A stretch of DNA of 64,000 nt from an uncultured Verrucomicrobiota bacterium. Lineage in GTDB: Bacteria > Verrucomicrobiota > Verrucomicrobiia > JABWAM01. The DNA lies in the NCBI GenBank assembly GCA_964653025.1, contig CAZZBZ010000006.1, positions 6,292 to 70,291 of the forward strand, in the 5' to 3' direction. Shown in pieces: positions 2,119 through 25,113 of the stretch. The notes below the pieces were generated by a model that made no database searches, was not told the origin of the DNA, and saw only the letters and a list, made by a program, of their open reading frames with translations. Both the position numbers and the translations under genes were made by a program. Position 1 is the first letter of the stretch. Each line of letters opens with the position of its first letter.

Positions 2119-2265
2119 GGGCGGGAACCTACCTTTTCGGTCATCGCCCGGTTATGTTCCGAAGTCAAGGTAACTTCTTATCATTCATCTCTTTCGAACC
2201 ACGGCTGCCGTGTTGGCGGCCATCGGAATCCGAGGGAAGCTTCTGATCACCACACTGGTAGGGCA

Positions 2266-2796: not shown

Positions 2797-3108
2797 GGTG
2801 AAATGCTGCAGCCGGCTTTCCGTGCGGGCAAGGGGAAAACGGCCGTCGTCCCATTTGCTAGTCTGCTGTCCCTGAAGTGCCTGCCAATATTTCTTTTGAT
2901 GGAGGGCCACGCTTCGTCGTGGCCATCGGCCATCACAGAGGGCACGACGAAGCGTGCCCCTCCATCATTCAGAGCAAACTTCTCGAAATGTGCGAGATCC
3001 ATAGTAGCAAGCATTTCGTGGACACCACACTAGCAAGTTGACGTCAAATCGTGAAGTCCACCGGATACTTGATTCCTGGAGGGTGACGAGAGTATGTAAA
3101 TTCCCCGT

Positions 3109-4176: not shown

Positions 4177-4257
4177 GGCAAATGCCCCTTTCCGCCCCTG
4201 GCAATCTTGTCAGGAATGGAGAGTGGGTCTATAATCCTTACTCCCCTCCGTAACTCC

Positions 4258-8059: not shown

Positions 8060-8062
8060 AAT

Positions 8063-8147
8063 TGGTGGGCGAGACAGGACTTGAACCTGTACCCCTTTCG
8101 GGACTGGAACCTAAATCCAGCGCGTCTGCCAGTTTCGCCACTCGCCC
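8063..8147 (-). tRNA. tRNA-Leu, anticodon UAG
   Basis: I folded it by hand. The acceptor stem is GGGCGAG/CUCGCCC with discriminator A and CCA. The anticodon stem-loop is CUGGA-UUUAGGU-UCCAG. There is a long variable arm, as expected for a class II Leu tRNA. The T-loop is GGUUCAAGUCC. Length is 85 nt. Confidence 0.85.
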
Positions 8148-8496
8148 ATCACTCTCAAAACGGGGGTATTCACGACGACTAAAAAAGGCACTGTCACACT
8201 TTCCGCCCATGTCCGTGCACACCCCTGTTTCAGGCTCCGTCCCATGAGCAAAGCGTCTCCCTTCGTCAAGGTTAAAGACCCTTCTCGCCATTCGGTTCGC
8301 GGTCTGTACCATCCCACGCTCTCACGCCCAGACTCGATCAACCCTTCAGCAACTCGTGCAGCCGCAGCCGCCGCCACAACGCCAACGCCAGATAGACCTC
8401 CCCAAACTTCCGCGCTCGCTCCACTCGCACCGCCGACACAACACCGCATTCAAGAGAGAGTTCAGTGAGGCGATCTTGGCGGAATCACAGCTGCGC

Positions 8497-9774
8497 TCAC
8501 AGCCGTGATCCCAGTCCGGTCCCGTGAGTGGTGTTCAGGCGGTGCACGCCGTTCGTTGGCTGGAATAAGCCCCGGAGACGCGGAAGCCAGGCTTCGTTGG
8601 CCTTTGGGGTGTACTGTGGGGAGTTGAGTTCGACGCAGTTGAGCATGGGAATGTGGGCCGCGAAGAGAAAAGCGTGGATGGCCGAATACCCCGGGTTGGT
8701 GAGGTCCTGAAGCGACAGCGTCATCCCGTGCTTGCGCGCCCACGCGGCCGCCACGAGGGCGAAGCTGTGCCCTTTGCAGGTTTTCAAGGCCAATCCACTC
8801 CATCCCTGTGTCCTCGCCAGCGGCAGCAGTTCGAGGTCCGTGAGGCCCTCGTCGAGGAGGACGGGTTTGAGGGAGGTGACGGCCCGCCAGTCGTGGGCAT
8901 GAACCTTGATGTCACGTCCTGTCGGTTGCTCCAGATAGATGAGGGCTTCGAAGGCGCCGTCGTCGATCGCGCGGAGGTGCTGAAGGTAATCAAGGACCGA
9001 AGCGGCGTCCGGATTGGCCTCGTTGCTGTCCGCGCTCAGGACGGGGCCCCGGATTCCCCAACTCCGTGCGGCGCGGTAGACCTCCACGGTGCGGGTCGCG
9101 TCCGCAAGAGGGTCCTTCCCGAGGATTTTAAGTTTGAAGGCTTCATAGCCGCCCCTCTTGACGCGGCCGGCCACCTCTGTCTCAAGATTGTCCCTTGCGC
9201 TCACGATCCACCATGCCTTCAGATGCTGCGATGGGTAGGGAGCCAGCACTCGTCGGATTGCCGCGCAAGCGGTTTCGCCTCCAAAATGGATGTCCGCCAA
9301 GGGGATGGGTGCTTCTTCGTCGTAGAATCGGAAGGCCGACCTGTTGAGGGCGATTCCTGCCGCGTCATGGATGGCGGCGTCGAAGGGACTCGCGCACATC
9401 GCTCGCGCCAGCGACGGAGGCCCCGCCTCTTGGCAGGCGGCGTGGTGAAGTCGCAGCCCGTGCTCCAGAGGGTGGGCCGGGGTGCCGCACCAGGACGGTA
9501 ACCTTTCCGATATCCCGATGCAGATCTTCCGCAGAACCGCGTCCCGCTGGTCGTGGCCTAACGCGGGGTCGGGCCATGCCCACAGGTCACTCAGGTAGAT
9601 GGAACCCCGCCCTGTAGCCTGAAGCCCGTTGGCGTCGACCGTGACGACGGCTCGCGCCTCGGTGATGTGGCTGATCAGCCCGCTGGAAAGTTGGAGCGGC
9701 TTTTCGAACGCCCGGGGCAGGAACTCGACACGGGCCTCCAAGACCCTGGTTTGCTGAATCGGTCGGGTGGACAT
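8497..9774 (-). CDS. Enolase-superfamily enzyme (mandelate racemase / muconate lactonizing enzyme family)
   Basis: The ORF is 425 aa. It has a capping domain followed by a TIM-barrel organisation. The catalytic Lys region KLKIL is present, as is a spaced acidic metal-ligand pattern. Confidence 0.7.
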   Translation of the reverse strand: MSTRPIQQTRVLEARVEFLPRAFEKPLQLSSGLISHITEARAVVTVDANGLQATGRGSIYLSDLWAWPDPALGHDQRDAVLRKICIGISERLPSWCGTPAHPLEHGLRLHHAACQEAGPPSLARAMCASPFDAAIHDAAGIALNRSAFRFYDEEAPIPLADIHFGGETACAAIRRVLAPYPSQHLKAWWIVSARDNLETEVAGRVKRGGYEAFKLKILGKDPLADATRTVEVYRAARSWGIRGPVLSADSNEANPDAASVLDYLQHLRAIDDGAFEALIYLEQPTGRDIKVHAHDWRAVTSLKPVLLDEGLTDLELLPLARTQGWSGLALKTCKGHSFALVAAAWARKHGMTLSLQDLTNPGYSAIHAFLFAAHIPMLNCVELNSPQYTPKANEAWLPRLRGLFQPTNGVHRLNTTHGTGLGSRL

Positions 9775-9794
9775 AATGGATATCGGTCACCGGC

Positions 9795-10229
9795 TCAGAC
9801 CTCCGCGATGTCCACCATGCGCTTCTCGAGCGCCGATTTCACCCCGGCCAAGCAGATGCGCGTGGCCCGCAAGGCGCTTTCGACCGGGCTGACCGGCTCC
9901 TTGCGAAGGCCCCGGATCTCCTCGACGAACGCGCCCAGCATCCGGGCGTACCCCTTGTCCGGTTCCGCGGTGAAGAGCTTCCAGATGTCCCCGCTGCGTT
10001 CCGCTTCCCGACATGCCTCGCGCTTCTTGGCGAGCCAGACGGAGAGCCCTCCCTTGCTTCCGACGTTCGGGTGACGATCCTTGAGCATGGGGTAGATCTT
10101 GCGCGCAGGGGCGTCCGCGATCCCTGTGGTTCGCACCTCGATCTCCGTCCAGCGCTGGCGTTTCCATGCCTTGATGGCCTCTTCGCGCCACGCGCACGGC
10201 GGGTCCGCAGCGCCTCTTTGTGGGCCCAC
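9795..10229 (-). CDS. Hypothetical protein (low confidence)
   Basis: The ORF is 144 aa with more protein-like composition (K/E/W) than the overlapping Arg/Gly-rich frame. It is tandem with, and immediately upstream of, the enolase-family gene. I recognise no domain. Confidence 0.35.
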   Translation of the reverse strand: MGPQRGAADPPCAWREEAIKAWKRQRWTEIEVRTTGIADAPARKIYPMLKDRHPNVGSKGGLSVWLAKKREACREAERSGDIWKLFTAEPDKGYARMLGAFVEEIRGLRKEPVSPVESALRATRICLAGVKSALEKRMVDIAEV

Positions 10230-10264
10230 TTGCGGCGATCGCTGAATGCACCGGTCGCGCGCGG

Positions 10265-12118
10265 TCAGGCGAGCGGTGTCTTGCGTGCGAAGAAGGCGCC
10301 TCCGGCTGCGAGCACCAGCAGGATGGCCATCGTGGAGGGCTCCGGAATGGTGACGTAGAACCCACCATCCTCGAAGGACCAGGAAAGCGACGACCCGTTA
10401 ATGAAGCTCACGTCGGTATCGGTCGGGTTGCCGAGGGCCGCGTTCCATGAAACCAAGAGGAGGTTGCTGGCGACCATGGGGCGGGTGAAGTTGGCGAGGT
10501 CCACCTGGATTGATCCTCCATGGGTGAACGAACCCGTGATGACCAGGAAGTCGTAGTTGCCTCCCGCGGTGAGAACGAGGTTCGAAACGTCGCCGATCTC
10601 AAGCTGGATCACGAGGTTGCTGTTGTTCCAGTTTCCGAAGTTGGTAATCACCCCCGGACTATTGCCGACATTTACGATCCCACCGGCCGCCCCTGCGACG
10701 TTCCCCGCGATGGAACCCGTGCCACGCACGGTCGCGTTGCTGCCGATTCCAAGGCCACCCTGGAAGGTGTGGGTTCCCCCGGAAAGGTCGAAAACCACCG
10801 GTGTGCCCCCGCCACCGAGGCTGAGGATCGCCCCGTTATTGATGAGCGTGGACTTTGAACGAAGAAGCCCGCCGCTGAACTGGAACACGGACGCCACGCC
10901 ATTGGTCGCGAGGAGGCGGTCAACCGCGCCCGTCCCTCCTGCCATAAGGAACGTCCCGTTCTGCACATCGAACACACCCGTCCCGGTGGAGTTGGATACG
11001 GCGAGGAATCCACCGCTATTGGTGAACGCACCGGCGCGAATGGAAACGCGGTTGGCCCACAGGTCGCCACCAGCCTTGGTCACCACGCCCATTCCCGCGG
11101 ACGCCTTGCCGAGGAACACCTCAGCGCTGCCCGCCCCGTTCGTCACCCGCAGGACGCCGGCATCGCTCATCAGGAGTTCACCCACCGCTTGACCGCCGTC
11201 CCCCAAGTAAACGTTGGAGCCGACAAGTAGGCTGCCGCCACTCAGGTTCACCCTCGCATGGTTGCTGGCCCCAATGGTGGTGTCCGATTTTTGGACGAAT
11301 GAACCGCCGGAGATATTGAGTTCGGCCCACGAGGTGGGGTTGGTGGTGAGGTTGAGGATAAGCGGGCTGGCGTTGGTCACCGTTCCCCCGGTCACCTCCA
11401 TGCGCGCATCGGCGTGAGCGTTGTTAAGACCGTAGCCCAACGTGATCGAGCTGCCGTTATTGACCAGGGCGCCTCCGACCACGCGGACGGTTCCTGTCCC
11501 CGAGTACCCCACGACGATTGCCTTTTGGCTCAAGAGGAGCCCATTGCTCACCGTCATGAGCGCGTTGTCACCGGCAAACCCCCCGACATACATGTTCCTC
11601 GAACCGTTGTATGTGAAGGAACCTCCATCCACCAAGAGAGTGCCGTTCCCGTTGATGGACGGATTGCTGGCGAAGTAAACCGTGCCGCCGAGGACGTTGA
11701 ATTGCGCGCCCCTGATGGTGATGGTTTTGCTCGGCCCGCCCTGCAGGTTGCTATAGGTTCCTCCCGCATGAACGTTCACGATGCTGCCTGTGTCGAACAA
11801 CTGCGCACCCGACACCTGGAAGCCGTTTGTGCGGATGTTGAGCGTCGTGGACCCCCCCGTCGCGATATTCTTGATGGACAGGTTCGTCAGGGAGACACCG
11901 GGCTGTAAGAACTCCACCTTGTAGTGGGAGGCGACGGCACTCGTCAGGAGCGCGTTCGTTGCAGAAATGCCCCCTACGCCATTGTCCCAGTTGGCGACGG
12001 CATCCCATGCGTTGTTCGCATTGGAGTAGTTCGTCCACGTGGTGGTTTGGCCCAGCAGGCAAGGACTGCCCAATGCCAACGCAAGGAGGATCGCAAGATG
12101 GATATGGCGGGTTTTCAT
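10265..12118 (-). CDS. PEP-CTERM protein with autotransporter-associated beta-strand repeats (exosortase substrate)
   Basis: The signal peptide is MKTRHIHLAILLALALGSPCLLGQ. ATG 12118 is chosen over the ORF-track start at 12220. The body has long Gly/Thr/Asn-rich beta-helix-like repeats. The C-terminus is the canonical VTIPEPSTMAILLVLAAGGAFFARK. Confidence 0.8.
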   Translation of the reverse strand: MKTRHIHLAILLALALGSPCLLGQTTTWTNYSNANNAWDAVANWDNGVGGISATNALLTSAVASHYKVEFLQPGVSLTNLSIKNIATGGSTTLNIRTNGFQVSGAQLFDTGSIVNVHAGGTYSNLQGGPSKTITIRGAQFNVLGGTVYFASNPSINGNGTLLVDGGSFTYNGSRNMYVGGFAGDNALMTVSNGLLLSQKAIVVGYSGTGTVRVVGGALVNNGSSITLGYGLNNAHADARMEVTGGTVTNASPLILNLTTNPTSWAELNISGGSFVQKSDTTIGASNHARVNLSGGSLLVGSNVYLGDGGQAVGELLMSDAGVLRVTNGAGSAEVFLGKASAGMGVVTKAGGDLWANRVSIRAGAFTNSGGFLAVSNSTGTGVFDVQNGTFLMAGGTGAVDRLLATNGVASVFQFSGGLLRSKSTLINNGAILSLGGGGTPVVFDLSGGTHTFQGGLGIGSNATVRGTGSIAGNVAGAAGGIVNVGNSPGVITNFGNWNNSNLVIQLEIGDVSNLVLTAGGNYDFLVITGSFTHGGSIQVDLANFTRPMVASNLLLVSWNAALGNPTDTDVSFINGSSLSWSFEDGGFYVTIPEPSTMAILLVLAAGGAFFARKTPLA

Positions 12119-12165
12119 AGAGGTTGAAGGGCCGGGGAAACGCGTGTCTGTCGTTCTTAGGATTC

Positions 12166-13185
12166 TTAGGAAGAAGCAAGGGGAATCGAGTCCGGGGCGG
12201 ACGGCACCTGCGCGGAACACAACGGCGAGGACCCGGGTATTTTAGTGTCGGTTTGCGAAGGAATCAAGCGGTATTTGGCTTTTCGATAGTCGCTGGCGAA
12301 ACCAGCCCCATCGTACGAGCAAGAGGGCATCGTCGACAGTTCCGCGATTCGGACTTCGCGATTCCCCTCATTCCACGATACCTGTGCCGCGAGGGCAGCG
12401 AGTTCGGGTTCGACCAGCACATCCCACGGGACGGGGGCCAGGGCGGCCTTTCCCGACAGGAAGGGGAGGGTCGCCTCGAGCAGGGCGTGATAGATGCGCG
12501 CGTTGTTTACGGATAGCTGATGGACGCCCTTCTCGGTGATGATGGTGCTGTAAAAAGGCAGGCTCGCCACCTGCTTTCCGATCACAACCATTCCGATGCG
12601 GCCGTCAGACCAATTCAGTTGAACGTGCCTCTGAACGCTGGTCCCGAGGTGTCGCACGCTGACGATACCAGACCCCAGGATCCCGCAGAGATGGGAGTAG
12701 GCGTGGATCCCATAGTTGAAGTCATCCACTCCGCAGCCGCAGATGACGGTGTGAGGGGTGCCACGCTCAAGCACGGGTTGCTCAAGGAAACGGAGGGTCT
12801 CGTCAGCGAACCTGAGGCAGGAGCCCCCGGTGATGCGCATTCCGCGATCGGCCCAAGACTTGAACTCGAGGAGGTCTTTCAGGTTTCCCGCAATCGGCTT
12901 GTCGACGAGGATCGCCCTGCCGGCTTCCACAAAGGGGCGAGCACGTTCCACGTGGGCATCCCAGTTGGAGGAGTGAATGATGGCACAATCCACTTTCGCG
13001 GCCATGGCGGCCAGCGAGGGAAAGACCACGGGAATGGATAACTTCGCCACGAAATCGCGGACATACTCTGGGGGGTGCACATCCCCGGCGTCCCAGACGC
13101 CGGTCACCTCGTGCCCCATCTCCCGCAGGATCGGGATCCACTTGACGGGATGACTGGTGTCCAAGTCGACAATTCCGATTTTCAT
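12166..13185 (-). CDS. Gfo/Idh/MocA-family NAD(P)-dependent oxidoreductase
   Basis: The N-terminal Rossmann region is MKIGIVDLDTSH...GHEV. There is a Gfo/Idh/MocA-like central region. Confidence 0.7.
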   Translation of the reverse strand: MKIGIVDLDTSHPVKWIPILREMGHEVTGVWDAGDVHPPEYVRDFVAKLSIPVVFPSLAAMAAKVDCAIIHSSNWDAHVERARPFVEAGRAILVDKPIAGNLKDLLEFKSWADRGMRITGGSCLRFADETLRFLEQPVLERGTPHTVICGCGVDDFNYGIHAYSHLCGILGSGIVSVRHLGTSVQRHVQLNWSDGRIGMVVIGKQVASLPFYSTIITEKGVHQLSVNNARIYHALLEATLPFLSGKAALAPVPWDVLVEPELAALAAQVSWNEGNREVRIAELSTMPSCSYDGAGFASDYRKAKYRLIPSQTDTKIPGSSPLCSAQVPSAPDSIPLASS

Positions 13186-13213
13186 AAAGAAGTCACAGCT
13201 CTGGGATCTGGGC

Positions 13214-14266
13214 TCACGCCATGCGCTCGAACATCTCGCGGGTCACTTCGCCGGAAATGGGGCGCCCCTCGACAAAGGCAAGAATCTGATCCACCGCCAT
13301 GCGGCCCTGACGGAGACAACCGTTCGAGACCGCCCCGGCGAGATGCGGAGTCAGAACCACGTTGGGAAGACGACGGAAGGGATGGTCGGCCGCCGGGGGT
13401 TCCGGGTCCGTGACATCGATGAACGCGGAGATGCGCCCGGTTTCGAGTTCGGCAAGGAGGGCCTGCTCATCCACAACCATCCCACGGGCGGTATTAATGA
13501 AGATGGCTCCATCTTTCATCGCGCGGAAATGCTGCGCCTTGAGAAGCTGCTTGGTTGCGGGGAGGGCGGGCGCGTGCAGGGAGACCACGTGGCTCTGGCA
13601 GACAAGGTCGTCAAGCGTGGCGAGGGTGCACCCGAGATCGCGGGCCGTCTCGGGTTTCATGTAGGGATCGTAAAGCAGGATGCGGACCTCGAAGTTGCGC
13701 AGCAGGCGAATCAGGTGCAGTCCGGCCCGGCTGGCGGAGATCACGCCGACGGTGACGCGGTAGAGTTCCCGGACCGCCATGCGGCCTGTCCCCAACGTCG
13801 GATCGCTCCACTTGCCGAGGCGCGTCCAGTCGCGGGACGGGAAAAACCCCTTCAACCCGGCGATGGCCATCCCGAGGGCGGTTTCGGCAACCCCCACGGC
13901 GATGGCGTCGTTGGTGGTTGCGATGCGGAGCCCGCGCGTCCAGATATCCGGGGGGACCAGGCGTTTGATGCTGCCGGCCGCGTGGACGAGAAGCCCGAGG
14001 TTGGGCAAGGAATCGAGGAACTTCGCCGCGAGTGGCGGGGTGCCCCAGCCGGTCACAAGGATCCCGATGCGGTCGGCGAACTCCGCCTCGATGGTCGGCG
14101 TAGCCCCGGTCCCTTCGCCGAGAATGACCGGGAGGCGCGCCTGAAGCGCCGCCATATCTTCCGGATCGAAGCAGCGCCTGCGGTTAGTCTCCGGCAGGTG
14201 GAGATAGGCGCGTTGGAGGGAAGGGGGAAGGGGAGGCATCGGGGTCAGGTGGGGGGAGGTCTCCAC
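13214..14266 (-). CDS. D-isomer-specific 2-hydroxyacid dehydrogenase family protein
   Basis: The NAD-binding domain has G-x-G-x-x-G-like GTGRMA. The catalytic region is typical, with RG...D/E...H, and the sequence LTPHLAG is present. Confidence 0.8.
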   Translation of the reverse strand: METSPHLTPMPPLPPSLQRAYLHLPETNRRRCFDPEDMAALQARLPVILGEGTGATPTIEAEFADRIGILVTGWGTPPLAAKFLDSLPNLGLLVHAAGSIKRLVPPDIWTRGLRIATTNDAIAVGVAETALGMAIAGLKGFFPSRDWTRLGKWSDPTLGTGRMAVRELYRVTVGVISASRAGLHLIRLLRNFEVRILLYDPYMKPETARDLGCTLATLDDLVCQSHVVSLHAPALPATKQLLKAQHFRAMKDGAIFINTARGMVVDEQALLAELETGRISAFIDVTDPEPPAADHPFRRLPNVVLTPHLAGAVSNGCLRQGRMAVDQILAFVEGRPISGEVTREMFERMA

Positions 14267-16815
14267 CGCATGAGGTTGATGCCGACGGAAAAATAGACGT
14301 TGCCGTCGCGGTCACACACGACTCCCGCCCCGATCTCCTGGCCGTCGATAAGTTGGGCGACCATCGTGCAGTTTTCGGGATGATTCGCAGGAGCACGGAA
14401 AATGGCCTGGCCGAGGGAACCGTAAATCGAACGGCTTCGGGCATCCCAGGCGAGCGTGGCTCTCCACGGCACGGAGGTGGAGGTGCGAAGAGATCTCCGG
14501 AAGCTCACGGAGAACGTGTTGGGGTCAACCCCGAACCATTCGCCTTCCCGGGTCAGCCCGCAGATCGGCCCGTCCGGTACAACGAGTAACGCGGCGATGG
14601 AAATGGCTCCAGGGACCTGGACCGTGCGAAGGACCTGATGCTTGTCGAGATCCCATTCAGCCAGCGTGGCGGTTTCAGCGACGGTCGCGCTTCCAGACCC
14701 CCCGTGGACCGAACTCCCCAGGTAGAGGCGCCGCCGTCCGTCATCCACGGCGAGAGCGGCGATGCTTTGGCGCGGGATGACGGAGCGCCAAACAGTGAAG
14801 GTTTCCTCCCCCTTGCGCAGGCACGCGAGCGCCCCGTTGTGCAGCCCGTAGCCGGGAGCGGTGCCCACATAGACGTTTCCAGACCGGTCGGAGACCATCG
14901 CCCAGGGACGATCCTGTTCCTGGCCAATTCGGCCAATGGTGCGGACCCCTTGACTGGGTTCGGAGGGATTAAAGGTATGGACGGTGGCATGCGTGTAGGT
15001 TCCCAGATAGAGCCTGCCATTGGCGGCGCACATGGAATCCACCTGCCCCGCCTTGAAAGACGTGATTTCGCGAAGATCATGGATTTGCCTTGTGGCCGGA
15101 TCGAAGGCCATCAAGACCGACGGCTTCGTCGAGGCATAGATCCGCCCATCCGGCCCCAGGGCGATGGAGTAGATGGATTTTACCCCACCCCCATAGGGAA
15201 GCGGAATCGAGACATGCTCGCCTCCTTCGCTCCATTTCCTTAAGAGGACCTTGGTGGCGCTCGCCTCGACAATTTGCCAGCCATTCTCGAGTCGAGGCTG
15301 GGCGGGAAAGGACGGGGGCATGCAACCCATTGCCTGTCGCACCCCATTGGCGACCTGTTCCACCTTGCCTCCCGGGGAGATTTTGAGGCAACGTCCTTCG
15401 CTGGCGGGGGTTGCGATCCCCGGGTAAGCGTACACAAGCCCATCCTCGCCCATGTAGACCCGGGGGACATGGTTGGTGACCCAGTCCTTGGGCCACACGT
15501 CCCTTTTCGCCCCGGAAACCGGGTTGTATTCGAAGAGGGCCTGCGAGCGCATGCCCACCGCGGCGTAGACAAGTCCATCGCGCCCGACGGCCCCGAAGCA
15601 GGCATGGGTCTGGTCGGGACTCAGCGCGCCGAGGTTGGTGATTTTCCGCGTCTTTGGATCAAGAGAAAACAGGAGGTTGCCCGGGTTGGTCCCCCCGTAG
15701 ATGGTGCCGTCGGGCGCCGTCTTGAGCCAGTAGACCATGGTCTCGTTTTCAATGCCGCCCAACTGCTCGACGCGGTTCTCCTTCGGATCGAAGCAGAAGA
15801 GAAAGGCACCGGGAGCCTGGGAGGTCCCGAGATAAACCCTGCCATCCTTCCCGGTCGTGATACCGTAAGGCATGCCGCTGAGTTCGTGCTTGGTCACCTC
15901 ACGCGTCGCCAGGTCGACCACCAGGATGAAACGATCACGTCGGAAAGCCATCACGAGCAGTTGGCCTGCGCCCCTCGGGTTCGGGCAAAGGGTCCAATCG
16001 TGGAGCGAGGCCGGGCTTTCGCCCGCCGGGCCCAATACCTCGATGCGGTCGTTCAGCAGCGCTTGCGGTACGCCCAAGGGGAGCTTCGGCAAGGAAGCCG
16101 CGGGGGGGCGCCCCGTCGTGGTGGCGGTCGCGCTTTTCTGCTTGCTGAGATCACCGAACCAGGGGGGCTCATGGGTGTCGGCGCCCTGGCCAACATCGAG
16201 TTCCTCCTGGCTCATGAGGCGGACACTCCCATCGCAGAAAAGGACGTGGGCCTTCTTCCCATCGAAACCAAACTGCATCCCTCCGTTTGGGTAAGCCTGG
16301 TACCAGCCCAAGCCCGGCTGTTTGATCGCTTCACTTTCGACAAGCAGGAGTGTTGCCCCGGCGTTGGGGACCTCCCGTACCAGCCGTCGACGGGGGCCAA
16401 TCTCTCCGCCCTTGGCATCGGCTCCAAGCGCATAGGTGTTGTAGCCGTAGCTCACGAGGCTGGCCTTGCCTCCTCGACGGAAGCTCATCGGCACGGACGG
16501 AGAGAAGAAGGGGCCATCGATCCTGACATGTCCCGGCGGAGAGGGATCATGGAGAGCCTTCTTCAGCAGTTCGGGCCACAGCAGCACCCGACCGCCATCG
16601 CCCTTGAGGGACAGCGGGGGAAACTCGCCGCCGTGATCCTTGCGCCATACCTGGAAGGCCTCGTAGAGCTCAAGTAGGTTCTTCTTCACCTGGGGGTCGG
16701 GCTCCTCGGCCCGTGTGGACGGGGGGGGGGTGATACCCCCAAGCAGAACAGCCAACAAGATCCCTCCTTTGATCAGCGCTCTGCACAGGCTTACGGGTGT
16801 TGAGCGGGTGTTCAT
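14245..16815 (-). CDS. Secreted fusion protein. It has an H-X9-DG (DUF1559 C-terminal-like) region and a large SBBP-type beta-propeller.
   Basis: The signal peptide is MNTRSTPVSLCRALIKGGILLAVLLG (ATG 16815). Residues about 150-250 resemble the C-terminal half of the neighbouring DUF1559 protein: VSYGYNTYALG...AHVLFCDGSVRLMS. They lack the prepilin N-terminus. After that come at least 9 repeats of the form DG.VY.GT....L..FDP. An example is DRSGNVYVGTAPGYG, which is SBBP beta-propeller-like. A C10 tract sits 85 nt into the CDS. Confidence 0.7.
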   Translation of the reverse strand: MNTRSTPVSLCRALIKGGILLAVLLGGITPPPSTRAEEPDPQVKKNLLELYEAFQVWRKDHGGEFPPLSLKGDGGRVLLWPELLKKALHDPSPPGHVRIDGPFFSPSVPMSFRRGGKASLVSYGYNTYALGADAKGGEIGPRRRLVREVPNAGATLLLVESEAIKQPGLGWYQAYPNGGMQFGFDGKKAHVLFCDGSVRLMSQEELDVGQGADTHEPPWFGDLSKQKSATATTTGRPPAASLPKLPLGVPQALLNDRIEVLGPAGESPASLHDWTLCPNPRGAGQLLVMAFRRDRFILVVDLATREVTKHELSGMPYGITTGKDGRVYLGTSQAPGAFLFCFDPKENRVEQLGGIENETMVYWLKTAPDGTIYGGTNPGNLLFSLDPKTRKITNLGALSPDQTHACFGAVGRDGLVYAAVGMRSQALFEYNPVSGAKRDVWPKDWVTNHVPRVYMGEDGLVYAYPGIATPASEGRCLKISPGGKVEQVANGVRQAMGCMPPSFPAQPRLENGWQIVEASATKVLLRKWSEGGEHVSIPLPYGGGVKSIYSIALGPDGRIYASTKPSVLMAFDPATRQIHDLREITSFKAGQVDSMCAANGRLYLGTYTHATVHTFNPSEPSQGVRTIGRIGQEQDRPWAMVSDRSGNVYVGTAPGYGLHNGALACLRKGEETFTVWRSVIPRQSIAALAVDDGRRRLYLGSSVHGGSGSATVAETATLAEWDLDKHQVLRTVQVPGAISIAALLVVPDGPICGLTREGEWFGVDPNTFSVSFRRSLRTSTSVPWRATLAWDARSRSIYGSLGQAIFRAPANHPENCTMVAQLIDGQEIGAGVVCDRDGNVYFSVGINLMRWRPPPT
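16721..16730. repeat. Homopolymeric G10 (C10 on the coding strand) inside the 5' end of CDS 14245..16815
   Basis: Ten consecutive G residues are in the window sequence. On the coding strand they encode TPPP directly after the signal peptide. This is a classic slipped-strand mispairing substrate. Confidence 0.9.
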
Positions 16816-16831
16816 GCGCAGATGCGGGTGA

Positions 16832-17542
16832 CTACTTGCAGTTGTTGCCGAACCATGGCGCGTTGTCCGTGTCGGGCGTGGCTCCAGTGACCAGTTGGTC
16901 TCTTGTCCGCGATTCCGCGTGGACGTCCGCAAAAAGCACATTTGCGCGTCCCTCGTGCCGCTCGAAGAAGAACGCGGGATGACAATATGAACCGTACCAC
17001 CCGACGTACGGTTGGGTGGTGGCCTCGATGTCCACGAGCATCAGCGTCTGCTCCGTTGGACTGCGCAGGTCCTTCCGCAGCTTCGTATTGCCGTCTGTCC
17101 AGGGGGTCATCCCGCCCCCAACCCCGTAGTGGCTCAGGCCATAGCTGACATAGGAGGCGGAGAGGTTCCGATCCTTTATGGGCACCGAAGGGCAATAAAA
17201 CACTCCCCGGGGATCGAGGTTGTAGCCGCTGGTGTTGTCCCCGACGTAGCGTTTCAGCAACACACCCCAGGCATAGTGTTCGGTAGCCGCCGTCGCAAGG
17301 TTCGGGGCAAAGCGAACCGGTGGAAAGTAGCCGTCGAAATCGTTGCGGTAGGCCATGATTGCCAGCCCGATCTGGCGGAGTTGGCCGGTGCAGGCGGTGC
17401 TTCGCGCCATGGCACGCGCGCGCCCCAGGGACGGCATCAGCAGGGCTGCGAGGATCGCAATGATTGCGATCACCACGAGAAGTTCGATCAGCGTGAAACC
17501 CCTTCCATCGCACCGACATGGCTCCGCCGGGGTGGTACCCAT
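16832..17542 (-). CDS. Prepilin-type N-terminal cleavage/methylation domain protein of the H-X9-DG (DUF1559) family
   Basis: The N-terminus is ...[28 protein letters not shown], a type IV pilin-like leader plus hydrophobic helix. The C-terminus is [15 protein letters not shown], an H-X9-D motif. This matches the TIGR04294-type family. Confidence 0.8.
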
Positions 17543-17632
17543 ACATTTGCCACGTAGTAGACCACACGGGCGAGTCGGCGTCTTTACCCGCGGCTGACGT
17601 GCTTTTGACCAAATCTGCTCGACGCCTTTGCG

Positions 17633-18496
17633 TCAGCGACTTTTCCGTCCCCAGGTTAACGGACGAGGCATGCCGTCATCCATGGTGAGGTGGGTGCTCC
17701 GGTAAACTGCCGGGCTGGTGTGGAATACCTTTCGGAAGGCCCGCGTGAACGGATGGACGGAGCAATAGCCGCTGAGTTCTGCAATCCTCTTGATAGGAAC
17801 CGGTTGCGAGGCGGTGAGTGCCGTGGCCGCCGCGCGCATCAGTTGATCGAGCAGAAAGCGGCGAGGGGACATGCCAAGCACCAGGCGAAAACTCCTCGAA
17901 AAATGCGCCGTGGAGAGGTGGCATGCCCTCGCCATGGCGCCCACGGTCCAGCGCTCCTGGGGGCACATGATGATCTTCTCAAGGAGCGGAAACAGTTGTG
18001 CCCGGAAAGGACTGAGTTCCACGGGTTGCCTGGGGCTTTCTGGCGTCCGCTGGGGAATTTCGGCGAGTGCCAGGGTGATGGCCGCATCCACCTGCTGGTG
18101 GATTAATGATCCCCCTTTGAGAAACCTTGCCCCAACGAGATTCAGGATCGCCCGCAGGGCGGGGGAGGCGCGGAACCTCTGAAAGGAGTGTCGTACTAGG
18201 GCCCAGAACGGTGGGGCAAGGTGAAATTTGAAGGATGCGTGCCGATGGCATGACTTCGAGGTAAACGCATGTCGGAGCAGGGGAGGGATCAACCAACCAT
18301 CACCAGGACGGCCGTCGAAAGGCGGATGGCCTTCGATGAACACCGTGGTTCTTCCCTCGAGGAGGATGTCGAGTTGGAAGTAATGATGGAGGTGCTGCCG
18401 CATCTGGTAGCCCTCGGGAGGAATCGTCGCAAAGTCCACTCTCACGATTTCGGTGACCACAGGACCATGCATGGGATGAAGGAGAAGGGGGCACAA
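17633..18496 (-). CDS. AraC-family transcriptional regulator
   Basis: The C-terminal dual helix-turn-helix of the AraC family is present (..HLSTAHFSRSFRLVLGMSPRRF... IKRIAELSGYCSVHPFTRAFRKVFHTSPAVYR). The N-terminus is a cupin-like sensing domain. It is divergent from a Gfo/Idh/MocA gene. Confidence 0.8.
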   Translation of the reverse strand: MCPLLLHPMHGPVVTEIVRVDFATIPPEGYQMRQHLHHYFQLDILLEGRTTVFIEGHPPFDGRPGDGWLIPPLLRHAFTSKSCHRHASFKFHLAPPFWALVRHSFQRFRASPALRAILNLVGARFLKGGSLIHQQVDAAITLALAEIPQRTPESPRQPVELSPFRAQLFPLLEKIIMCPQERWTVGAMARACHLSTAHFSRSFRLVLGMSPRRFLLDQLMRAAATALTASQPVPIKRIAELSGYCSVHPFTRAFRKVFHTSPAVYRSTHLTMDDGMPRPLTWGRKSR

Positions 18497-18601
18497 CGTG
18501 TAGTTGCTCGCGGGGTCATGCTAGAGAATAAAGCAGATTTGGTCAAATCCGTGGTCGCCCGCGACAAAGACGAACCACGGGGATTCGTTCAAAGTAGCGG
18601 G

Positions 18602-19573
18602 ATGAACACCGTTCCTGTCGCACTGATCGGTTGCGGAAAGCTGGGGCGCGTCCACGCCGAATGCCTTGCTCGGATTCCCGAAGCACGGTTGGTCGCCTAC
18701 GCGGACGTGTCGGAGGAGGCCGCCAAGGGTTTACTCAAGGATTTTGGAGGCGAATATGCCACCATGGACGTGTCGCGCGTAGTTGGCGACCCGTCGATTC
18801 GGGCGGTCTACATCTGCACGCGGCATGACTCGCACGCCCCTCTGGCGATCGCCGCGGCGCGAGCAGGCAAACATATCCTGATCGAGAAGCCCCTCGCCCT
18901 GACCATCGAGGACTGCGAAAGCGTCGCATTGGAGGTGGCGAAGGCGGGGGTTGTCCTGATGCCTGCGTTCAAGATGCGGTACTACCCGCTCATCCAGATG
19001 GCTCACGAATTCATTCCCGAGCCACAGGTCCTGGTTGGGCAGATGATGTGCGACCGCTGGCCCGAGACCATCTGGCCACAGGACCCGGTCCAGGGTGGGG
19101 GCAACGTTCATAGCCAAGGATGCCATACGACCGACATCCTGCGATATCTGGCGGGCAGCGAACCGAAGCTCCTCTGGGCTGCAGGAGGGGCCCTTACCCA
19201 CACGAGACATCCGTGCATTGACCAGTGCGTGGCGACCATCTGCTTTGCAAATGGACACGTGGCGAGTTGGATTCAGGGTGATGCCGCCACGGGAATGTTC
19301 ACCAGCAAGTTCTTCTTCGAGTTGTTCGGCAACAATGGTCGTAGCGTCCAGCTTCACGATCGCCTGAAGAAGGCGGTGTTCTTCGATGGCAAGAAGACCT
19401 GGACGGAGGAACGCGGGGAGGAAGAGGGGTTCTTTCTCGAAAACCGGGAATTCATCTCCGCCATCCTCGAAGAACGGAAACCGGCCCTTGACGTCCATGA
19501 CGGGATCCAAGCCACTCGCATCGTGCTTGCCGCCGAACGCGCGATCCGCACGGGAATCGTCCAGAAACTGTGA
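18602..19573 (+). CDS. Gfo/Idh/MocA-family oxidoreductase
   Basis: The ATG at 18602 gives MNTVPVALIGCGKLGRVHAE..., a Rossmann N-terminus typical of the family. The ORF-track start at 18269 would overlap the AraC gene. Confidence 0.8.
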   Translation: MNTVPVALIGCGKLGRVHAECLARIPEARLVAYADVSEEAAKGLLKDFGGEYATMDVSRVVGDPSIRAVYICTRHDSHAPLAIAAARAGKHILIEKPLALTIEDCESVALEVAKAGVVLMPAFKMRYYPLIQMAHEFIPEPQVLVGQMMCDRWPETIWPQDPVQGGGNVHSQGCHTTDILRYLAGSEPKLLWAAGGALTHTRHPCIDQCVATICFANGHVASWIQGDAATGMFTSKFFFELFGNNGRSVQLHDRLKKAVFFDGKKTWTEERGEEEGFFLENREFISAILEERKPALDVHDGIQATRIVLAAERAIRTGIVQKL

Positions 19574-19684
19574 GGTTCCGGGGAAGCTTCCTCGCACACA
19601 TCCAACCTAGGGAAAACTCGCGAGAGCCTGTCCTTGCTGGGGCGGCAGGAATCAACCGGCCAGGGCCACACCATTGGGCTTGGC

Positions 19685-20101
19685 CTAATCGCCGATGATC
19701 TTCACGAGGGCCCGCTTGCGGCGCCGTCCGTCGAACTCGCCGTAGAAGATCTGCTCCCAGGGGCCGAAATCGAGGCGACCCTGGGAGATCGCCACAACGA
19801 CCTCGCGGCCCATGATCGTGCGCTTCAGGTGGGCATCGGCGTTGTCCTCGGCCCCGTTGTGGGCGTACTGGGAGTGCGGCTTCTCGGGCGCCAGCTTCTC
19901 GAGCCACTTTTCGAAATCGGCGCGGAGACCGCGTTCGTTATCATTGACGAACACGCTGGCGGTGATGTGCATCGCGTTGACCAGGACCAGGCCCTCGCGG
20001 ATGGCGCTGTCGCGGAGGCATTGTTCGACCTGCGGGGTGATGTTCACGAGCCCGCAGCGTGACGGGATCTCGAACCAGAGTTCCTTTCGGTAGCTCTTCA
20101 T
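19685..20101 (-). CDS. yjbQ: YjbQ/UPF0047-family protein (secondary thiamine-phosphate synthase-like)
   Basis: The family hallmark [13 protein letters not shown] is present. The length is 138 aa. Confidence 0.85.
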
Positions 20102-20410
20102 GGTTTTGGGAAACTAAAGGGTTGGGGGGGTGACGGGTCGAGGACCCACGCGGGTTTCGGATTCCTTCCTCTTCCTTCAACCTCGCAAGGGCCTTCTGCA
20201 CTACATGCCACCTCCAACTCAGTCCCCCTCTGAAAACTCCCAGACTCCCTCACCCCTCACGGGGGGAGATATTTTCACCCTCGCTCAAACTGCGGAACTT
20301 GGGCTAGAAGCCGGAGGTGGACAATACCCCAAGGTTCCCTTATCCTTCCGCCTGTTATTGAGTGGTCCGTGGGCGCGCCACAGTGCGACGCGGGCCGCCG
20401 AGGAGGTTAC

Positions 20411-20899
20411 GTGGAACTCAAAGAAATCAAGGCGATCATTGACCTGATGAAGCGCAACGGGCTCACGGAGTTTGAACTCGAGCGCGACAATCAAAAGATC
20501 CGCATCCGCCGGGGGGCGGACGGGTCTTTCCAATCCATTTCTCCCGCGGGCGGAGTCGGGCATTCCGTGGCCGTCCCCGCACCCCAGGTCGCCCTCCCGG
20601 TTTCCGCGGTTCCCGTAGCGTCGGTCCTTGCGTCTGCCGCGCCCGATCTCAAGGAGATCAAGTCGCCGATGGTCGGCACATTCTACCGGTCCCCTTCGCC
20701 CGACGCCCCGCCCTACGTGGAGATTGGCCAGACGGTCACCGAGGACACCGTGGTCTGTCTCATCGAGGCGATGAAGGTGATGAACGAGATCAAGGCCGAG
20801 GCCTCGGGTGTGATCGCCGAGATCTGTGTCGAGAACGTCAAGCCCGTGGAGTTTGGCAAACCCCTTTTCCGTCTTCGAACGCTTTCCGTAGCCAAATAG
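20411..20899 (+). CDS. accB: Acetyl-CoA carboxylase biotin carboxyl carrier protein
   Basis: The biotinylation motif EAMKVMNEI is present. There is an Ala/Pro-rich linker. The GTG start at 20411 is preceded by a perfect AGGAGG Shine-Dalgarno 5 nt upstream. The N-terminus VELKEIKAIIDLM matches AccB N-termini. Confidence 0.85.
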   Translation: MELKEIKAIIDLMKRNGLTEFELERDNQKIRIRRGADGSFQSISPAGGVGHSVAVPAPQVALPVSAVPVASVLASAAPDLKEIKSPMVGTFYRSPSPDAPPYVEIGQTVTEDTVVCLIEAMKVMNEIKAEASGVIAEICVENVKPVEFGKPLFRLRTLSVAK

Positions 20900-20905
20900 T
20901 CGGCC

Positions 20906-22270
20906 ATGTTCCAGAAGGTCCTCATCGCCAACCGCGGCGAAATTGCACTGCGCGTGATCCGCGCGTGCCGCGATCTCGGTATCCCCACGCTGGCGGTTTA
21001 CTCGGACGTGGACGTGGACTGCCTTCACGTCCAGTTTGCCGACGAGGCGATCTGCATCGGCAGCGCGCCGGCCACCGAGAGTTATCTCAAGATCGACCGC
21101 ATTATCTCCGCCGCGGAGGTGGGGGACGTGGACGCCATCCACCCGGGGTACGGTTTTCTTGCCGAGAATGCGCACTTTGCGGACATCTGCGAGAACTGCA
21201 ACATCAAGTTCATCGGTCCCGGCGCCGGGGCGATGCGTGCGATGGGGGACAAGGCACGGGCCCGCGAATCCGCCCGCAAGGCGGGCATCCCCGTGGTTCC
21301 CGGGAGCGACGGGGTGCTCGACAACGAGCAGGAGGCGCTCCGTGCCGCGAAGAAGCTCGGCTATCCCGTGATGATCAAGGCGGTGGCCGGGGGAGGGGGG
21401 CGCGGGATGCGCATCGCGCACAACGACGTCAGCCTGGTCCAGGGCTTTTTCACCGCGAAGGCGGAAGCGGAGAGGGCCTTCAACAACCCCGGGCTTTATC
21501 TCGAGAAATTGATCGAGAACCCCCACCACATCGAGTTTCAGATTCTTGCGGACGAGCATGGACATATCGTGCATTTCGGGGAGCGCGAGTGCAGCATTCA
21601 GCGTCGTCACCAGAAGCTCATCGAGGAATGCCCGTCGCCCTTTCTGACGGCCGACCTCCGCAAGAAGATGGGTAAGGCCGCGGTGCGCCTCGCCCAGGCG
21701 GTTTCCTACACCAGTGCGGGGACCATTGAGTTTCTTGTGGACGGGAAGGGGAATTTTTACTTTCTCGAGATGAACACCCGCATCCAGGTGGAGCATCCCG
21801 TCACCGAGGAGGTCTTTGGGGTGGACCTTGTGAAGTGGCAGATCCGAGCGGCGGCGGGGGAGAAGTTGGGGTTCGACCAGGATGACCTGAAGCCACGGGG
21901 CGCCGCGATCGAGTGCCGGGTAAACGCGGAGGATTCCGAGCGGAACTTCATGCCTTCAGCGGGCAGGATTGAACTCTTCTGCCCCCCGGGCGGATGCGGC
22001 GTGCGCGTGGATTCCCACGCCTACAGCGGTTACCACATGCCGCCGAACTATGACTCGCTCCTGGCAAAGATCATCACCCGCGGGTCGGATCGCGAGGAGG
22101 CGCTCACCCGCATGCGACGTGCGCTCGACGAGTGCCTGTTCAAGGGCGTCAAGACCACGATCCCCGTGTCCAAGATGGTTTTGCGCGATCCGAACTTCCG
22201 CCGAGGCCAGTACGATTTGGGATTCCTGCCCGCCCTCCTGAAAAACGGCCATGGCGACGGGGTGGAGTAG
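20906..22270 (+). CDS. accC: Acetyl-CoA carboxylase biotin carboxylase subunit
   Basis: The N-terminus is [21 protein letters not shown]. There is an ATP-grasp domain. The whole 454 aa is collinear with AccC. Confidence 0.9.
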
Positions 22271-22387
22271 TCCCTTTGTCGCTCGCGAGAAAATTCCAAC
22301 GTCGGACTTGCGCGACGGCGGGCTTTCTCCTAATTCAACGCGCATTCGCGCGGCTTATCGCGCGGTTTTAAATCAACAAGAACTTTC

Positions 22388-23416
22388 ATGAGCATCAAAA
22401 GACTCGCCATGCTGACCGGTGGGGGCGACTGCCCCGGCCTGAACCCCGTAATCCGTGCCGTGACTCGCCGCGCCCTGCAGGAGGGGTACGAGGTGCTTGG
22501 TATTCGCAACGGCTGGAAGGGGATGATCGAAAAGAACTTTATTTCGCTCGACCGCCTTGCAATCGCGGGAATCCTTCACCGCGGCGGCACCATCCTGGGG
22601 ACCTCCCGCACCAACCCCCGCAAGATGCCCGGCGCCGTCCAGAAAATCTTTGATAACTTCAAGGATCTGAAACTCGACGTCCTCATCGCCATCGGGGGGG
22701 ACGATACCCTTGGCGTGGCCTACGACCTCCACACGAAGGGTCTCGCCACGATCGGGGTGCCGAAGACCATCGACAATGACCTTCCCGGCACCGACTACAC
22801 TTTCGGTTTTGACACCGCGGTGAATATTGCCATGGAGGCCATCGACCGCCTCCACACCACGGCGGAATCGCACAATCGGGTGCTGGTCGTCGAGTTGATG
22901 GGGCGCAACGCGGGCTGGATCACCCTCCACGCCGGGATCGCCGGCGGGGCAGACTACATCCTCCTTCCCGAGTTTCCGAAGAGCATGAAGGAAGTGGGCG
23001 AGGTTCTCAAAAAGCGCCACGCGGGCGGCCGCTCCTTCAGCATCGTCGCCGTCTCCGAGGGCTTCAAGATCGAGGGCGAGGAAATCACCCAGAACCATGA
23101 GAAGGATGCCTTTGGTCATGTCCGGCTCGGTGGCGTGGGCGAGCGCGTGGCCAAGCAGATTGAGAAGCACACCGGCTTTGAGACCCGCTCCGTCGTCCTC
23201 GGTCACCTCCAGCGTGGCGGTGTGCCCACGGCCTACGACCGCGTGCTCGGCACGCGCTACGGCCTCAAGGCGGTCGAACTCGCGATGAAGGGCCAGTTTG
23301 GGAAGATGGTGGCCCTCCGTGGCACCGAGATCGTGGCGATCGACCTGCAGGCGGTCACCAAGACAAAGGTGGTCAGCAAGGAACTCTACGAGGAAGCCCA
23401 GGTCTTCTTCGGCTGA
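22388..23416 (+). CDS. pfkA: 6-phosphofructokinase (ATP- or PPi-dependent; not resolved)
   Basis: The motifs LTGGGDCPGLN, GGDDT and MGR are present. The length of 342 aa is typical. Confidence 0.85.
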   Translation: MSIKRLAMLTGGGDCPGLNPVIRAVTRRALQEGYEVLGIRNGWKGMIEKNFISLDRLAIAGILHRGGTILGTSRTNPRKMPGAVQKIFDNFKDLKLDVLIAIGGDDTLGVAYDLHTKGLATIGVPKTIDNDLPGTDYTFGFDTAVNIAMEAIDRLHTTAESHNRVLVVELMGRNAGWITLHAGIAGGADYILLPEFPKSMKEVGEVLKKRHAGGRSFSIVAVSEGFKIEGEEITQNHEKDAFGHVRLGGVGERVAKQIEKHTGFETRSVVLGHLQRGGVPTAYDRVLGTRYGLKAVELAMKGQFGKMVALRGTEIVAIDLQAVTKTKVVSKELYEEAQVFFG

Positions 23417-23450
23417 GGTTTCGCGACGAGAATATCGGTCCTGATCGGAT

Positions 23451-23475
23451 GGGGGGCGCAATCCTCGCGCCCCCC
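23451..23475. terminator. GC hairpin between the convergent pfkA and exosortase genes
   Basis: GGGGGGCGC-AATCCTC-GCGCCCCCC gives a perfect 9-bp stem and a 7-nt loop. There is no strong U tract, which is common at this GC content. It lies between two stop codons. Confidence 0.45.
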
Positions 23476-23565
23476 TCCGATCACTCGTGGCCGTGCCAAG
23501 CGCGTGGATGCCGCAGAAAACCCCCGGCAAACCACCCTGCGCCCGATCCGTGCTTCGCCGCGCGG

Positions 23566-25092: not shown

Positions 25093-25113
25093 CGAGAGGG
25101 AAGGGGGAAATCG

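Follow-up and report, generated by a model that had tools for sequence, protein, structure and literature searches.

What is an exported protein with a pilin-like head and a large beta-propeller doing beside a gene for a pilin-like protein, and is the run of ten cytosines near its start a genetic switch? Both questions are raised by two adjacent minus-strand genes in a stretch of 64,000 nucleotides from an uncultured Verrucomicrobiota bacterium (assembly GCA_964653025.1, contig CAZZBZ010000006.1, positions 6,292 to 70,291), which was analysed as a whole and is hereafter called the window. The upstream gene (P0028, 16832..17542) encodes a prepilin-type, DUF1559 pseudopilin-like protein of 236 amino acids (aa) with a leader and helix, a head domain and the motif RH-x9-DV. 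The downstream gene (P0001, 14245..16815), separated from it by 16 nt, encodes 856 aa comprising a Sec-type signal peptide, a pilin-head (DUF1559-like) module, a linker and tandem beta-propellers. Both open reading frames (ORFs) had been pointed out by an earlier reading of the letters alone, the sequence-only reading, and both exist. On balance, we lean towards a reading in which the larger product is a Sec-exported envelope protein that combines a leaderless pseudopilin head with a glycan-sensor-type double propeller and serves a strain-specific, AraC-associated pathway for the utilisation of sugars or sugar acids.

The 856-aa protein starts with MNTRSTPVSLCRALIKGGILLAVLLGGITPPPSTRA, in which Sec-type n, h and c regions can be read; the sequence-only reading had noted a signal peptide here. 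Residues 1-36 (coding region 16708..16815, minus strand) hold an n-region with R4, R12 and K16, a 12-residue h-region, GGILLAVLLGGI, and a c-region, TPPPSTRA, ahead of a predicted cut before EEPDPQV. These boundaries were assigned by reading the sequence, and the mature start aligns with the ...A/QEPDAQVV and ...S/QEPHPEVV of homologues (here and below, a slash marks the cleavage site). Because neither PF07963 nor TIGR02532 matches this N-terminus, it is not a prepilin leader. Three other ways of reading the start were considered and rejected. A degenerate prepilin leader (KGG/ILLAV...) would lack Glu at +5 and would have only ~11 hydrophobic residues before PPP. A lipoprotein signal would need a lipobox, and the sole Cys near the N-terminus (C11, in VSLC) lies ahead of the hydrophobic stretch with none around it. 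Finally, an upstream start at 16941, which would give an ORF of 898 aa, would overlap the pilin gene by 110 nt and bury the signal peptide.

The signal peptide is followed by a leaderless pilin-head module (16123..16707, minus strand; residues 37-231). BLASTP aligned residues 35-225 of the large protein with residues 43-236 of the neighbour at 31% identity (E 2e-21), that is, with the whole head that follows the hydrophobic helix. The sequence-only reading had limited this homology to the neighbour's C-terminal half; the alignment that it quoted (VSYGYN.../...VLFCDGS) is found, and the globular domain aligns in full. The module is therefore a complete DUF1559 pseudopilin head that lacks no more than the leader and the alpha1-N helix, and, without these two elements, it cannot be built into a pilin filament in the usual manner. 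AlphaFold2 (AF2), run on residues 30-232 with a 65-sequence alignment, returned a confident model (predicted local distance difference test (pLDDT) 91.7, predicted TM-score (pTM) 0.89) with a 20-residue helix and then a beta-sheet. The modelled module displays the feature expected of a pseudopilin fold, a long helix equivalent to alpha1-C lying against an antiparallel beta-sheet. Foldseek found no PDB match for this model. When a profile of the module family was searched against PDB sequences, only alpha1-N helices were matched, and these matches came from the prepilin members of the profile; no solved structure therefore covers the head domain of the family.

The split of domains that had been expected from the letters is wrong: the head is present in full, and a Sec-type signal peptide stands in place of the class III leader and hydrophobic helix alone. 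The module scored 19.0 bits with TIGR04294, exactly the cutoff, and had no PF07596 match at E<=0.1. In the 65-sequence alignment, the family motif is R-H-x4-N-V-L-F-x-D-G-H, and the window module has F-D-x4-H-V-L-F-C-D-G-S, which keeps the DG of an FD-x9-DG signature. The motif His is present in 58 of the 65 sequences, and the window module is the only one with Asp in its place. Two family cysteines, one in the alpha1-C helix and one in the FxCP loop, occur together in 58 sequences and are jointly absent from six, including the window module, with a single exception. This joint presence or absence indicates a disulfide that the window module has lost as a pair. The two positions correspond to residues ~43 and 105 of the 856-aa protein. 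The pair is also lost in several other leaderless modules, among which an additional Cys, that of VLFCDG, is invariant.

Beyond a linker that AF2 modelled with low confidence (residues 232-257), the rest of the protein (14248..16044, minus strand; residues ~258-856) is made of tandem beta-propellers of the Reg_prop type, with ~13-14 blades in all. The sequence-only reading had described a fusion to a ~650-aa multi-blade SBBP propeller. The large propeller stands, whereas the SBBP assignment does not: in a Pfam search of the 856-aa protein, PF06739 had no match at E<=0.1 and the best family was Reg_prop (PF07494, 37.3 bits, cutoff 20.4), with DUF5074 and SSL_N also matched. The AF2 model of residues 233-856 (pLDDT 88.1, pTM 0.86) contains ~52 strands, and Foldseek related it to tandem seven-bladed double propellers (7+7), including the periplasmic sensor domains BT4663 and BT4673 of B. 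thetaiotaomicron; the match to 4a2m had an E value of 8e-17 and a TM-score of only 0.36. By sequence (hmmsearch against the PDB), the best solved relative was BT4663 (4a2l, E 7.6e-17), followed by 3v9f and 3ott, all of them sensors of hybrid two-component systems (HTCS). Such sensors of Bacteroides (BT4663, BT4673 and BT3049; Reg_prop; solved relatives 4a2l, 3v9f and 3ott/3va6) thus carry tandem propellers like those of the window protein. BT4663 senses by binding oligosaccharide ligands. The title of its PDB entry names heparin and heparan sulphate as what it senses. The window protein differs from these sensors in that it ends at the second propeller, Pfam finding no Y_Y_Y domain, transmembrane segment, kinase or receiver; it is no signal transducer by itself, and the TM-score of the likeness is ~0.36.

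Weak enzyme-family matches in the same region raise an alternative that we consider rather unlikely and that can overlap with the reading given above: the propeller would be an enzyme, a lactonase or lyase acting on a sugar derivative, the head would be a localisation or solubility tag, and the operon would be purely catabolic. The matches are to SMP-30/gluconolactonase (E 0.018), a strictosidine-synthase-like N-terminus (24.4 bits), virginiamycin B lyase and the ScyE family. The conserved neighbours, a 2-hydroxyacid dehydrogenase and Gfo/Idh/MocA oxidoreductases, would suit such a role, as would the fusion of the same module to glycosidase-like proteins (GH123_N). However, every one of the enzyme-family matches lies under its curated cutoff, whereas the strongest matches in sequence and in fold are to non-enzymatic sensor propellers (PF07494 above its cutoff, and 4a2l), and tandem double propellers are typical of binding scaffolds.

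Gene comparison indicates that the 856-aa gene is a true fusion of two genes that are separate in relatives. On contig L016, which carries the propeller protein P0003, a signal peptide and the module form a 208-aa gene of their own (3558-4184), and after 33 nt a separate propeller gene of 620 aa follows downstream; the 208-aa protein ends in ...APWYGNLSK, and the propeller is 41% identical to that of the window. The genes of L016 are, in order, a GntR-type regulator, a 279-aa protein, the 208-aa module, the propeller, a 2-hydroxyacid dehydrogenase (2-Hacid_dh), an unassigned gene and, on the opposite strand, a Gfo/Idh/MocA gene. Gene order in the window is the same, except that module and propeller share one ORF; a linker of ~26-40 residues takes the place of the stop codon, the gap between the genes and the signal peptide of the propeller. 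No module is present in the nearest propeller homologues (P0002-P0004 and P0006, 41-43% identity). P0005 (995 aa), encoded after AraC and Gfo/Idh/MocA genes, consists of two modules and a propeller.

That module and propeller are separate genes in relatives would also fit an artefact, in which two genes of a metagenome-assembled genome were joined by a sequencing or assembly frameshift or by the loss of a stop codon, and the window is identical to contigs from metagenome runs, so that it probably comes from a metagenome assembly. We regard this explanation as very improbable. The reading frame is continuous through the linker, and P0005 is the same kind of fusion, recovered on five contigs from different samples. 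Moreover, Logan contig L013, an independent contig from a single run, covers window positions 16402-11138, including the fusion junction and the whole propeller, at 100% identity; because L013 spans it, the junction is no assembly error.

The distribution of the module was defined with a profile of six modules searched against 1.84 billion representative proteins. Matches numbered 661 at E<=1e-3 and only 11 at E<=1e-30, the eleventh being the window neighbour P0028, the top-scoring ordinary prepilin (E 1e-30). The ten others, leaderless modules or their nearest relatives, comprise propeller fusions, CBM9-like/GH123_N fusions of ~1320 aa, stand-alone forms of 204-208 aa and one form of 250 aa. 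Canonical prepilins ending in PWFG-N (P0036-P0038) fell just under the cut, at ~1e-30 to 1e-27. In every fusion the module comes directly after the signal peptide. In P0008, P0011, P0012, P0016, P0029 and P0034 it precedes a CBM9-like/GH123_N-type glycosidase region, "CBM9-like" being NCBI's name for P0011, whose gene lies between GlcNAc 2-epimerase-family and GH172-like genes. Two of these proteins, P0016 and P0011, carry Lentisphaerae/Victivallales names. The window module shares 42-55% identity with modules of Lentisphaerota proteins, against 31% with its own neighbour, and is therefore no recent local duplicate; a recent tandem duplication of the neighbouring gene was rejected on these figures. 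Among GTDB representative genomes no close relative of the large protein was found: nine loci were returned, of which two were convincing, both Lentisphaerota GH123-type fusions. The 856-aa protein had no match in JGI metagenome contigs, and an exact look-up returned no indexed contig, the Logan contigs of the locus being reached through the neighbouring genes.

Two kinds of intermediate occur in the module clade. P0033 (250 aa) retains a degenerate prepilin leader that contains E5, G/VILTELLAAAV..., and P0032 and the 208-aa protein of L016 (3558-4184) are stand-alone heads with Sec signals. The leader swap is thus placed inside this small clade. Our search of the literature found no description of a leaderless DUF1559/H-X9-DG head used as an N-terminal module. 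The DUF1559/H-X9-DG proteins of Planctomycetota, Verrucomicrobiota and Lentisphaerota are themselves a known family, and the neighbour belongs to them by its leader and DUF1559 N-terminal region. The module is homologous over the whole head, but has neither class III leader nor alpha1-N helix and stands at the N-terminus of large multidomain proteins. It is this recruitment of the head, without its pilin leader, that is new here.

The neighbouring pseudopilin P0028 has a class III leader (G/F-x-x-x-E) and a hydrophobic alpha1-N helix, with 33.8 bits to PF07963 (cutoff 21.2) and 32.9 bits to TIGR02532 (cutoff 16.3). It matched DUF1559 (PF07596, SBP_bac_10) with 40.1 bits (cutoff 23.3), over profile positions 2-56 of 268 only. 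With TIGR04294 it reached 15.6 bits, under the cutoff of 19, and the V that replaces G in its motif is unique among the 65 aligned relatives. The sequence-only reading had called it a canonical DUF1559 prepilin; the leader and the PF07596 match agree with this description, whereas the TIGR04294 score and the DV in place of DG do not. Sequence comparison thus places P0028 as a divergent member of the prepilin-type DUF1559/H-X9-DG family, and at E<=1e-10 it has over 3,600 relatives, which JGI names prepilin or H-X9-DG proteins. A second prepilin-type DUF1559 gene lies elsewhere in the window, at ~57917-58684 on the minus strand (stop-to-stop ORF 57920-59173), with 29.1 bits to PF07596, 20.8 bits to PF07963 (just missing the cutoff of 21.2) and a phmmer E value of 1.3e-16 to P0028.

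P0175 (41% identity), the closest relative of P0028 with a known context, is encoded between a LacI regulator and a 1139-aa secreted protein. The layout of regulator, DUF1559 pilin and large secreted protein suggests a recurring operon design. On L021 (GCA_045635745.1), two adjacent operons, at 1530-6853 and 7002-12143, each consist of a regulator of the LacI/Peripla_BP type, a DUF1559 pilin-like gene and a large secreted protein, one of 957 aa with F5/8 type C and one of 1139 aa with no family assigned. An Opitutales isolate has 67 PulG-like pseudopilin paralogues, one of them within an alginate-utilisation cluster, and a pseudopilin is among its genes over-expressed on alginate (PMC13274419). 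In Planctopirus limnophila, DUF1559 is a family of unknown function and, with 68 copies, the largest paralogue group (PMC10632474). With 67-68 copies per genome in these two studies, DUF1559/H-X9-DG proteins rank with the largest paralogue families of Planctomycetota, Verrucomicrobiota and Lentisphaerota.

These observations can be arranged into the following scenario. A DUF1559/H-X9-DG pseudopilin head would have shed the class III leader and the hydrophobic alpha1-N helix and acquired a signal peptide of the ordinary kind. The module would then have been fused, in this lineage, to the gene found downstream of it in relatives, which encodes a tandem Reg_prop-type propeller, giving the second gene of an AraC-associated unit that appears to comprise the pseudopilin, the fusion protein, the 2-hydroxyacid dehydrogenase and a Gfo/Idh/MocA oxidoreductase. 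We infer that the fusion protein acts as the envelope component that binds or captures glycans for a strain-specific sugar or sugar-acid utilisation system. The propellers would bind the ligand. The pilin-head module would tether or present them, probably head-to-head with DUF1559 pseudopilins of an apparatus resembling a type II secretion system or type IV pilus (T2SS/T4P).

Several points weigh against this reading. The module has lost the Cys pair and, in its motif, carries R155F, H156D and H168S, so that the role of the ancestral site may be gone. The low TM-scores to BT4663 (0.36) do not fix the relative orientation of the two modelled propellers. The weak SGL/gluconolactonase, strictosidine-synthase-like and virginiamycin B lyase matches, together with the dehydrogenase neighbours, leave room for an enzyme. 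Lastly, an adjacent prepilin gene is found in one of four module contexts, the window having one and L016, L017 and L022 none. The sequence-only reading had seen in the large protein a non-pilin partner of its neighbour: a copy of the pilin domain is indeed fused to a propeller in a non-pilin protein, while the partnership with a neighbouring pilin is not conserved.

A bolder version of the docking step, which we judge improbable, makes leaderless heads into cargo adaptors: Sec-exported cargo (a double propeller or a GH123-like glycosidase) would dock through them, head to head, on a pseudopilus or type IV-like fibre made of matching DUF1559 pseudopilins, to be pushed through a secretin or displayed. 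If this were true, the large DUF1559 families would serve polysaccharide-utilisation operons as adaptors specific to a substrate or cargo, the window pilin and its head-fused cargo, adjacent and co-transcribed, would form a minimal test pair, and the C10 tract would add on/off control in the population.

Returning to the preferred reading of an envelope glycan-binding protein, we compared it with known systems that couple pilin-like parts to binding modules. In modular type IV pilins, such as PilB and PilC of Streptococcus sanguinis, a pilin module and an adhesive or lectin-like module form one polypeptide. In these pilins, which polymerise into the filament, both class III signal peptide and alpha1-N helix are retained; the window protein has neither element. 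In the Sulfolobus "bindosome", sugar-binding proteins bear class III (pilin-like) signal peptides, and pilin-type machinery is coupled to sugar uptake. That system is archaeal and its binding proteins keep the pilin-type leader, which the window protein has lost. PilC1/2 of Neisseria and PilY1 of Pseudomonas resemble the window protein in being large, in not being pilins, in combining an ordinary signal peptide with a beta-propeller and in being encoded beside pilin-like genes. PilY1 differs in having a single modified seven-bladed propeller and no pilin-head module and in joining the pilus through minor pilins, and the PilC/PilY1 propeller family is absent from the Pfam matches of the 856-aa protein at E<=0.1. 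By analogy, these proteins would be its closest functional counterpart, without homology and with several of their defining features absent from the window protein.

A rare branch of the family has given up the filament helix and serves as the N-terminal module of exported propellers and glycosidases, and in relatives these parts are encoded by separate neighbour genes; taken together, this argues that the head has a carbohydrate-linked function of its own. The locus offers a testable handle on this very large family: the module and the adjacent pseudopilin form a defined pair for binding or docking tests. By itself, the locus is a comparative-genomics lead to a putative mechanism.

The likeness to PilC brings up the second question, that of the homopolymer. 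A C10 run (G10 on the plus strand) occupies 16721..16730 and starts 85 nt into the minus-strand coding sequence, exactly as the sequence-only reading had stated; its codons, aCC-CCC-CCC-CCg, specify T29-P30-P31-P32 in the c-region of the signal peptide. The predicted effect of slippage was also correct: C9 truncates the protein to 42 aa and C11 to 48 aa, while C7 and C13 stay in frame. From this arrangement, the tract had been taken for a contingency locus. Spelled out, it would be a selected slipped-strand switch of the exported propeller and possibly, through polarity, of the downstream dehydrogenases, on the model of Neisseria pilC. In many bacteria, G/C runs of at least ~9 nt have high slippage rates. 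Jonsson et al. (1991) reportedly placed the G tract of pilC1 in its signal-peptide coding region. The pilC1 gene contains a long homopolymer tract and counts as a phase-variable contingency gene (PMC5231331).

The position of the window tract, in the first 100 nt of the coding sequence and in a c-region tolerant of whole-codon changes, is one from which a change of length would switch expression. It is also the longest homopolymer in the window, and the protein is exported and encoded on an accessory segment. Its length, nevertheless, does not exceed what composition and codon usage predict. The window has 64.0% GC and contains 39, 16, 2, 1 and 1 G/C runs of 6, 7, 8, 9 and 10 nt, respectively; this geometric tail, extrapolated at a ratio of ~0.3 per added base, gives ~0.5 runs of at least 10 nt per window. 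CCC accounts for 45% of Pro codons, and the codon choice seen for T-P-P-P has a probability of ~10% if ACC is taken as about half of Thr codons. The claim that such a run would be unusual even in a 66% GC genome is thus not upheld. Of the 20 G/C runs of at least 7 nt, 17 are G on the plus strand.

Comparison with other sequences gave no length variant. Only the window and Logan contig L001 span the tract, and both have C10; a pattern of the tract flanks that allowed 6-15 bases between them had no match in JGI metagenome contigs. Conservation of the tract is likewise not seen: among the homologues, none of them a close orthologue, neither a Pro run nor a tract occurs at this site, and the sister strain has no such locus. 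In conserved genes shared with this ~99% identical strain, a G9 (3517-3525), a G8 (5733-5740) and three G7 runs (4923-4929, 22694-22700 and 24951-24957) have the same lengths in both genomes. The G9 run was also considered as a control for assembly breaks caused by homopolymers: its gene and the neighbour of that gene are on no Logan contig, and one JGI contig of 1.9 kb begins ~74 nt from the run. No further repeat-controlled genes were seen in the locus.

Contig ends gave a less clear-cut picture. L001, L002 and L003, each from a single run (SRR12261223, SRR12261224 and SRR12261225), carry the pilin gene at 100% identity to the window. L001 reads through an intact C10 and ends 5 nt later, at 16715; L002 ends immediately ahead of the tract, at 16731, and L003 at 16770, so that no end is more than 55 nt away from it. 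Random breaks would be unlikely to cluster in this way, and these ends from three separate runs are the one suggestive fact in favour of heterogeneity. Yet L002 stops ahead of the first C, the next contig of the same sample, L013, resumes 329 nt on, at 16402, and the breaks do not resemble a simple C9/C10 bubble; they fit low coverage combined with homopolymer sequencing error, which explains the contig ends as well as true heterogeneity does.

Taken together, these results provide no positive evidence for a contingency locus, and we hold a selected switch to be a doubtful explanation. Most simply, C10 is a by-product of common T-P-P-P codons in a tolerant c-region. Codon-pair counts run mildly counter to this simple account, CCC-CCC being observed 12 times against 19.3 expected and CCT-CCC 15 times against 4.6; the genome therefore tends to interrupt C-runs at Pro-Pro pairs, to which the C10 tract is an exception, a point that would favour selection. 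The tract is a plausible mutational hot spot and, as a selected switch, unproven; phase variation would matter only if reads showed heterogeneity of tract length.

The whole locus lies inside a strain-specific segment of 12.2 kb (8148..20303). The sister genome GCA_049318025.1 (L015, JBMOHD010000017.1) aligns with window positions 1964-8147 (98.6%) and then jumps to 20304-26261 (99.5%), with ~71 unrelated bases in place of the segment. On the left, the segment is abutted by the 5' end of a tRNA-Leu(TAG) gene (8063..8147, minus strand; ARAGORN). GC content is 59-65% inside the segment and 61-69% outside, with no marked shift. A mobile-element origin was rejected, as no integrase or transposase was among the genes scanned there and no direct repeats were found flanking the segment. 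Its genes encode an enolase-superfamily protein, a PEP-CTERM protein, two Gfo/Idh/MocA oxidoreductases, the 2-hydroxyacid dehydrogenase, the pilin and fusion pair, an AraC-family regulator and a UPF0047 protein.

The AraC-family gene (cupin and HTH_18; 17633..18496, minus strand) lies directly upstream of the pilin-like gene. It matched PF12833 with 63.6 bits, PF00165 with 58.7 bits and Cupin_2 weakly; gene callers start it at 18472, and on Logan contigs its product has 279 aa. The D-isomer-specific 2-hydroxyacid dehydrogenase gene (13214..14239, minus strand; PF02826, 165 bits) follows 5 nt downstream of the fusion gene; its ATG start at 14239 is also the start on L013, and the gene order is the same in L016. 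Next in the same direction comes a Gfo/Idh/MocA-type oxidoreductase gene (12166..13185, minus strand; PF01408), which has counterparts near the propeller genes of L016 and L017. The gaps of 16 nt and 5 nt and the absence of a convincing terminator between the genes are signs of an operon.

There are exactly two copies of the 16-mer AGCAGATTTGGTCAAA in the window, where chance would give 0.23, each of them upstream of a transcription unit and inside a 41-nt imperfect inverted repeat. One copy (17604..17619, minus strand; repeat I1) lies between the AraC and pilin genes, and the other (18532..18547, plus strand) in the divergent region between the AraC gene and a second Gfo/Idh/MocA gene. Two copies facing transcription units suggest common control, and, judging by its placement, the 16-mer is likely a shared operator of both units; both sites would presumably be controlled by the AraC protein.

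The divergent Gfo/Idh/MocA oxidoreductase gene (18602..19573, plus strand; PF01408, 87 bits; PF02894) has an uncertain start. The longest ORF has its start at 18269, within the AraC gene, the Logan and metagenome call is 18476, 4 nt from the AraC start, and the Rossmann motif lies near 18602, where a start would leave true intergenic room for the 16-mer. A 617-aa PEP-CTERM-sorted surface protein is encoded at 10265..12118 (minus strand), with a C-terminal TIGR02595 match of 16.9 bits (cutoff 16). On L016, the 279-aa protein matched no NCBIfam model and has, by eye, a PEP-CTERM-like tail (VPEP, a hydrophobic stretch and KKRK). An exosortase EpsH gene (23566-25092, minus strand) stands just outside the variable segment, in DNA common to the sister strain.

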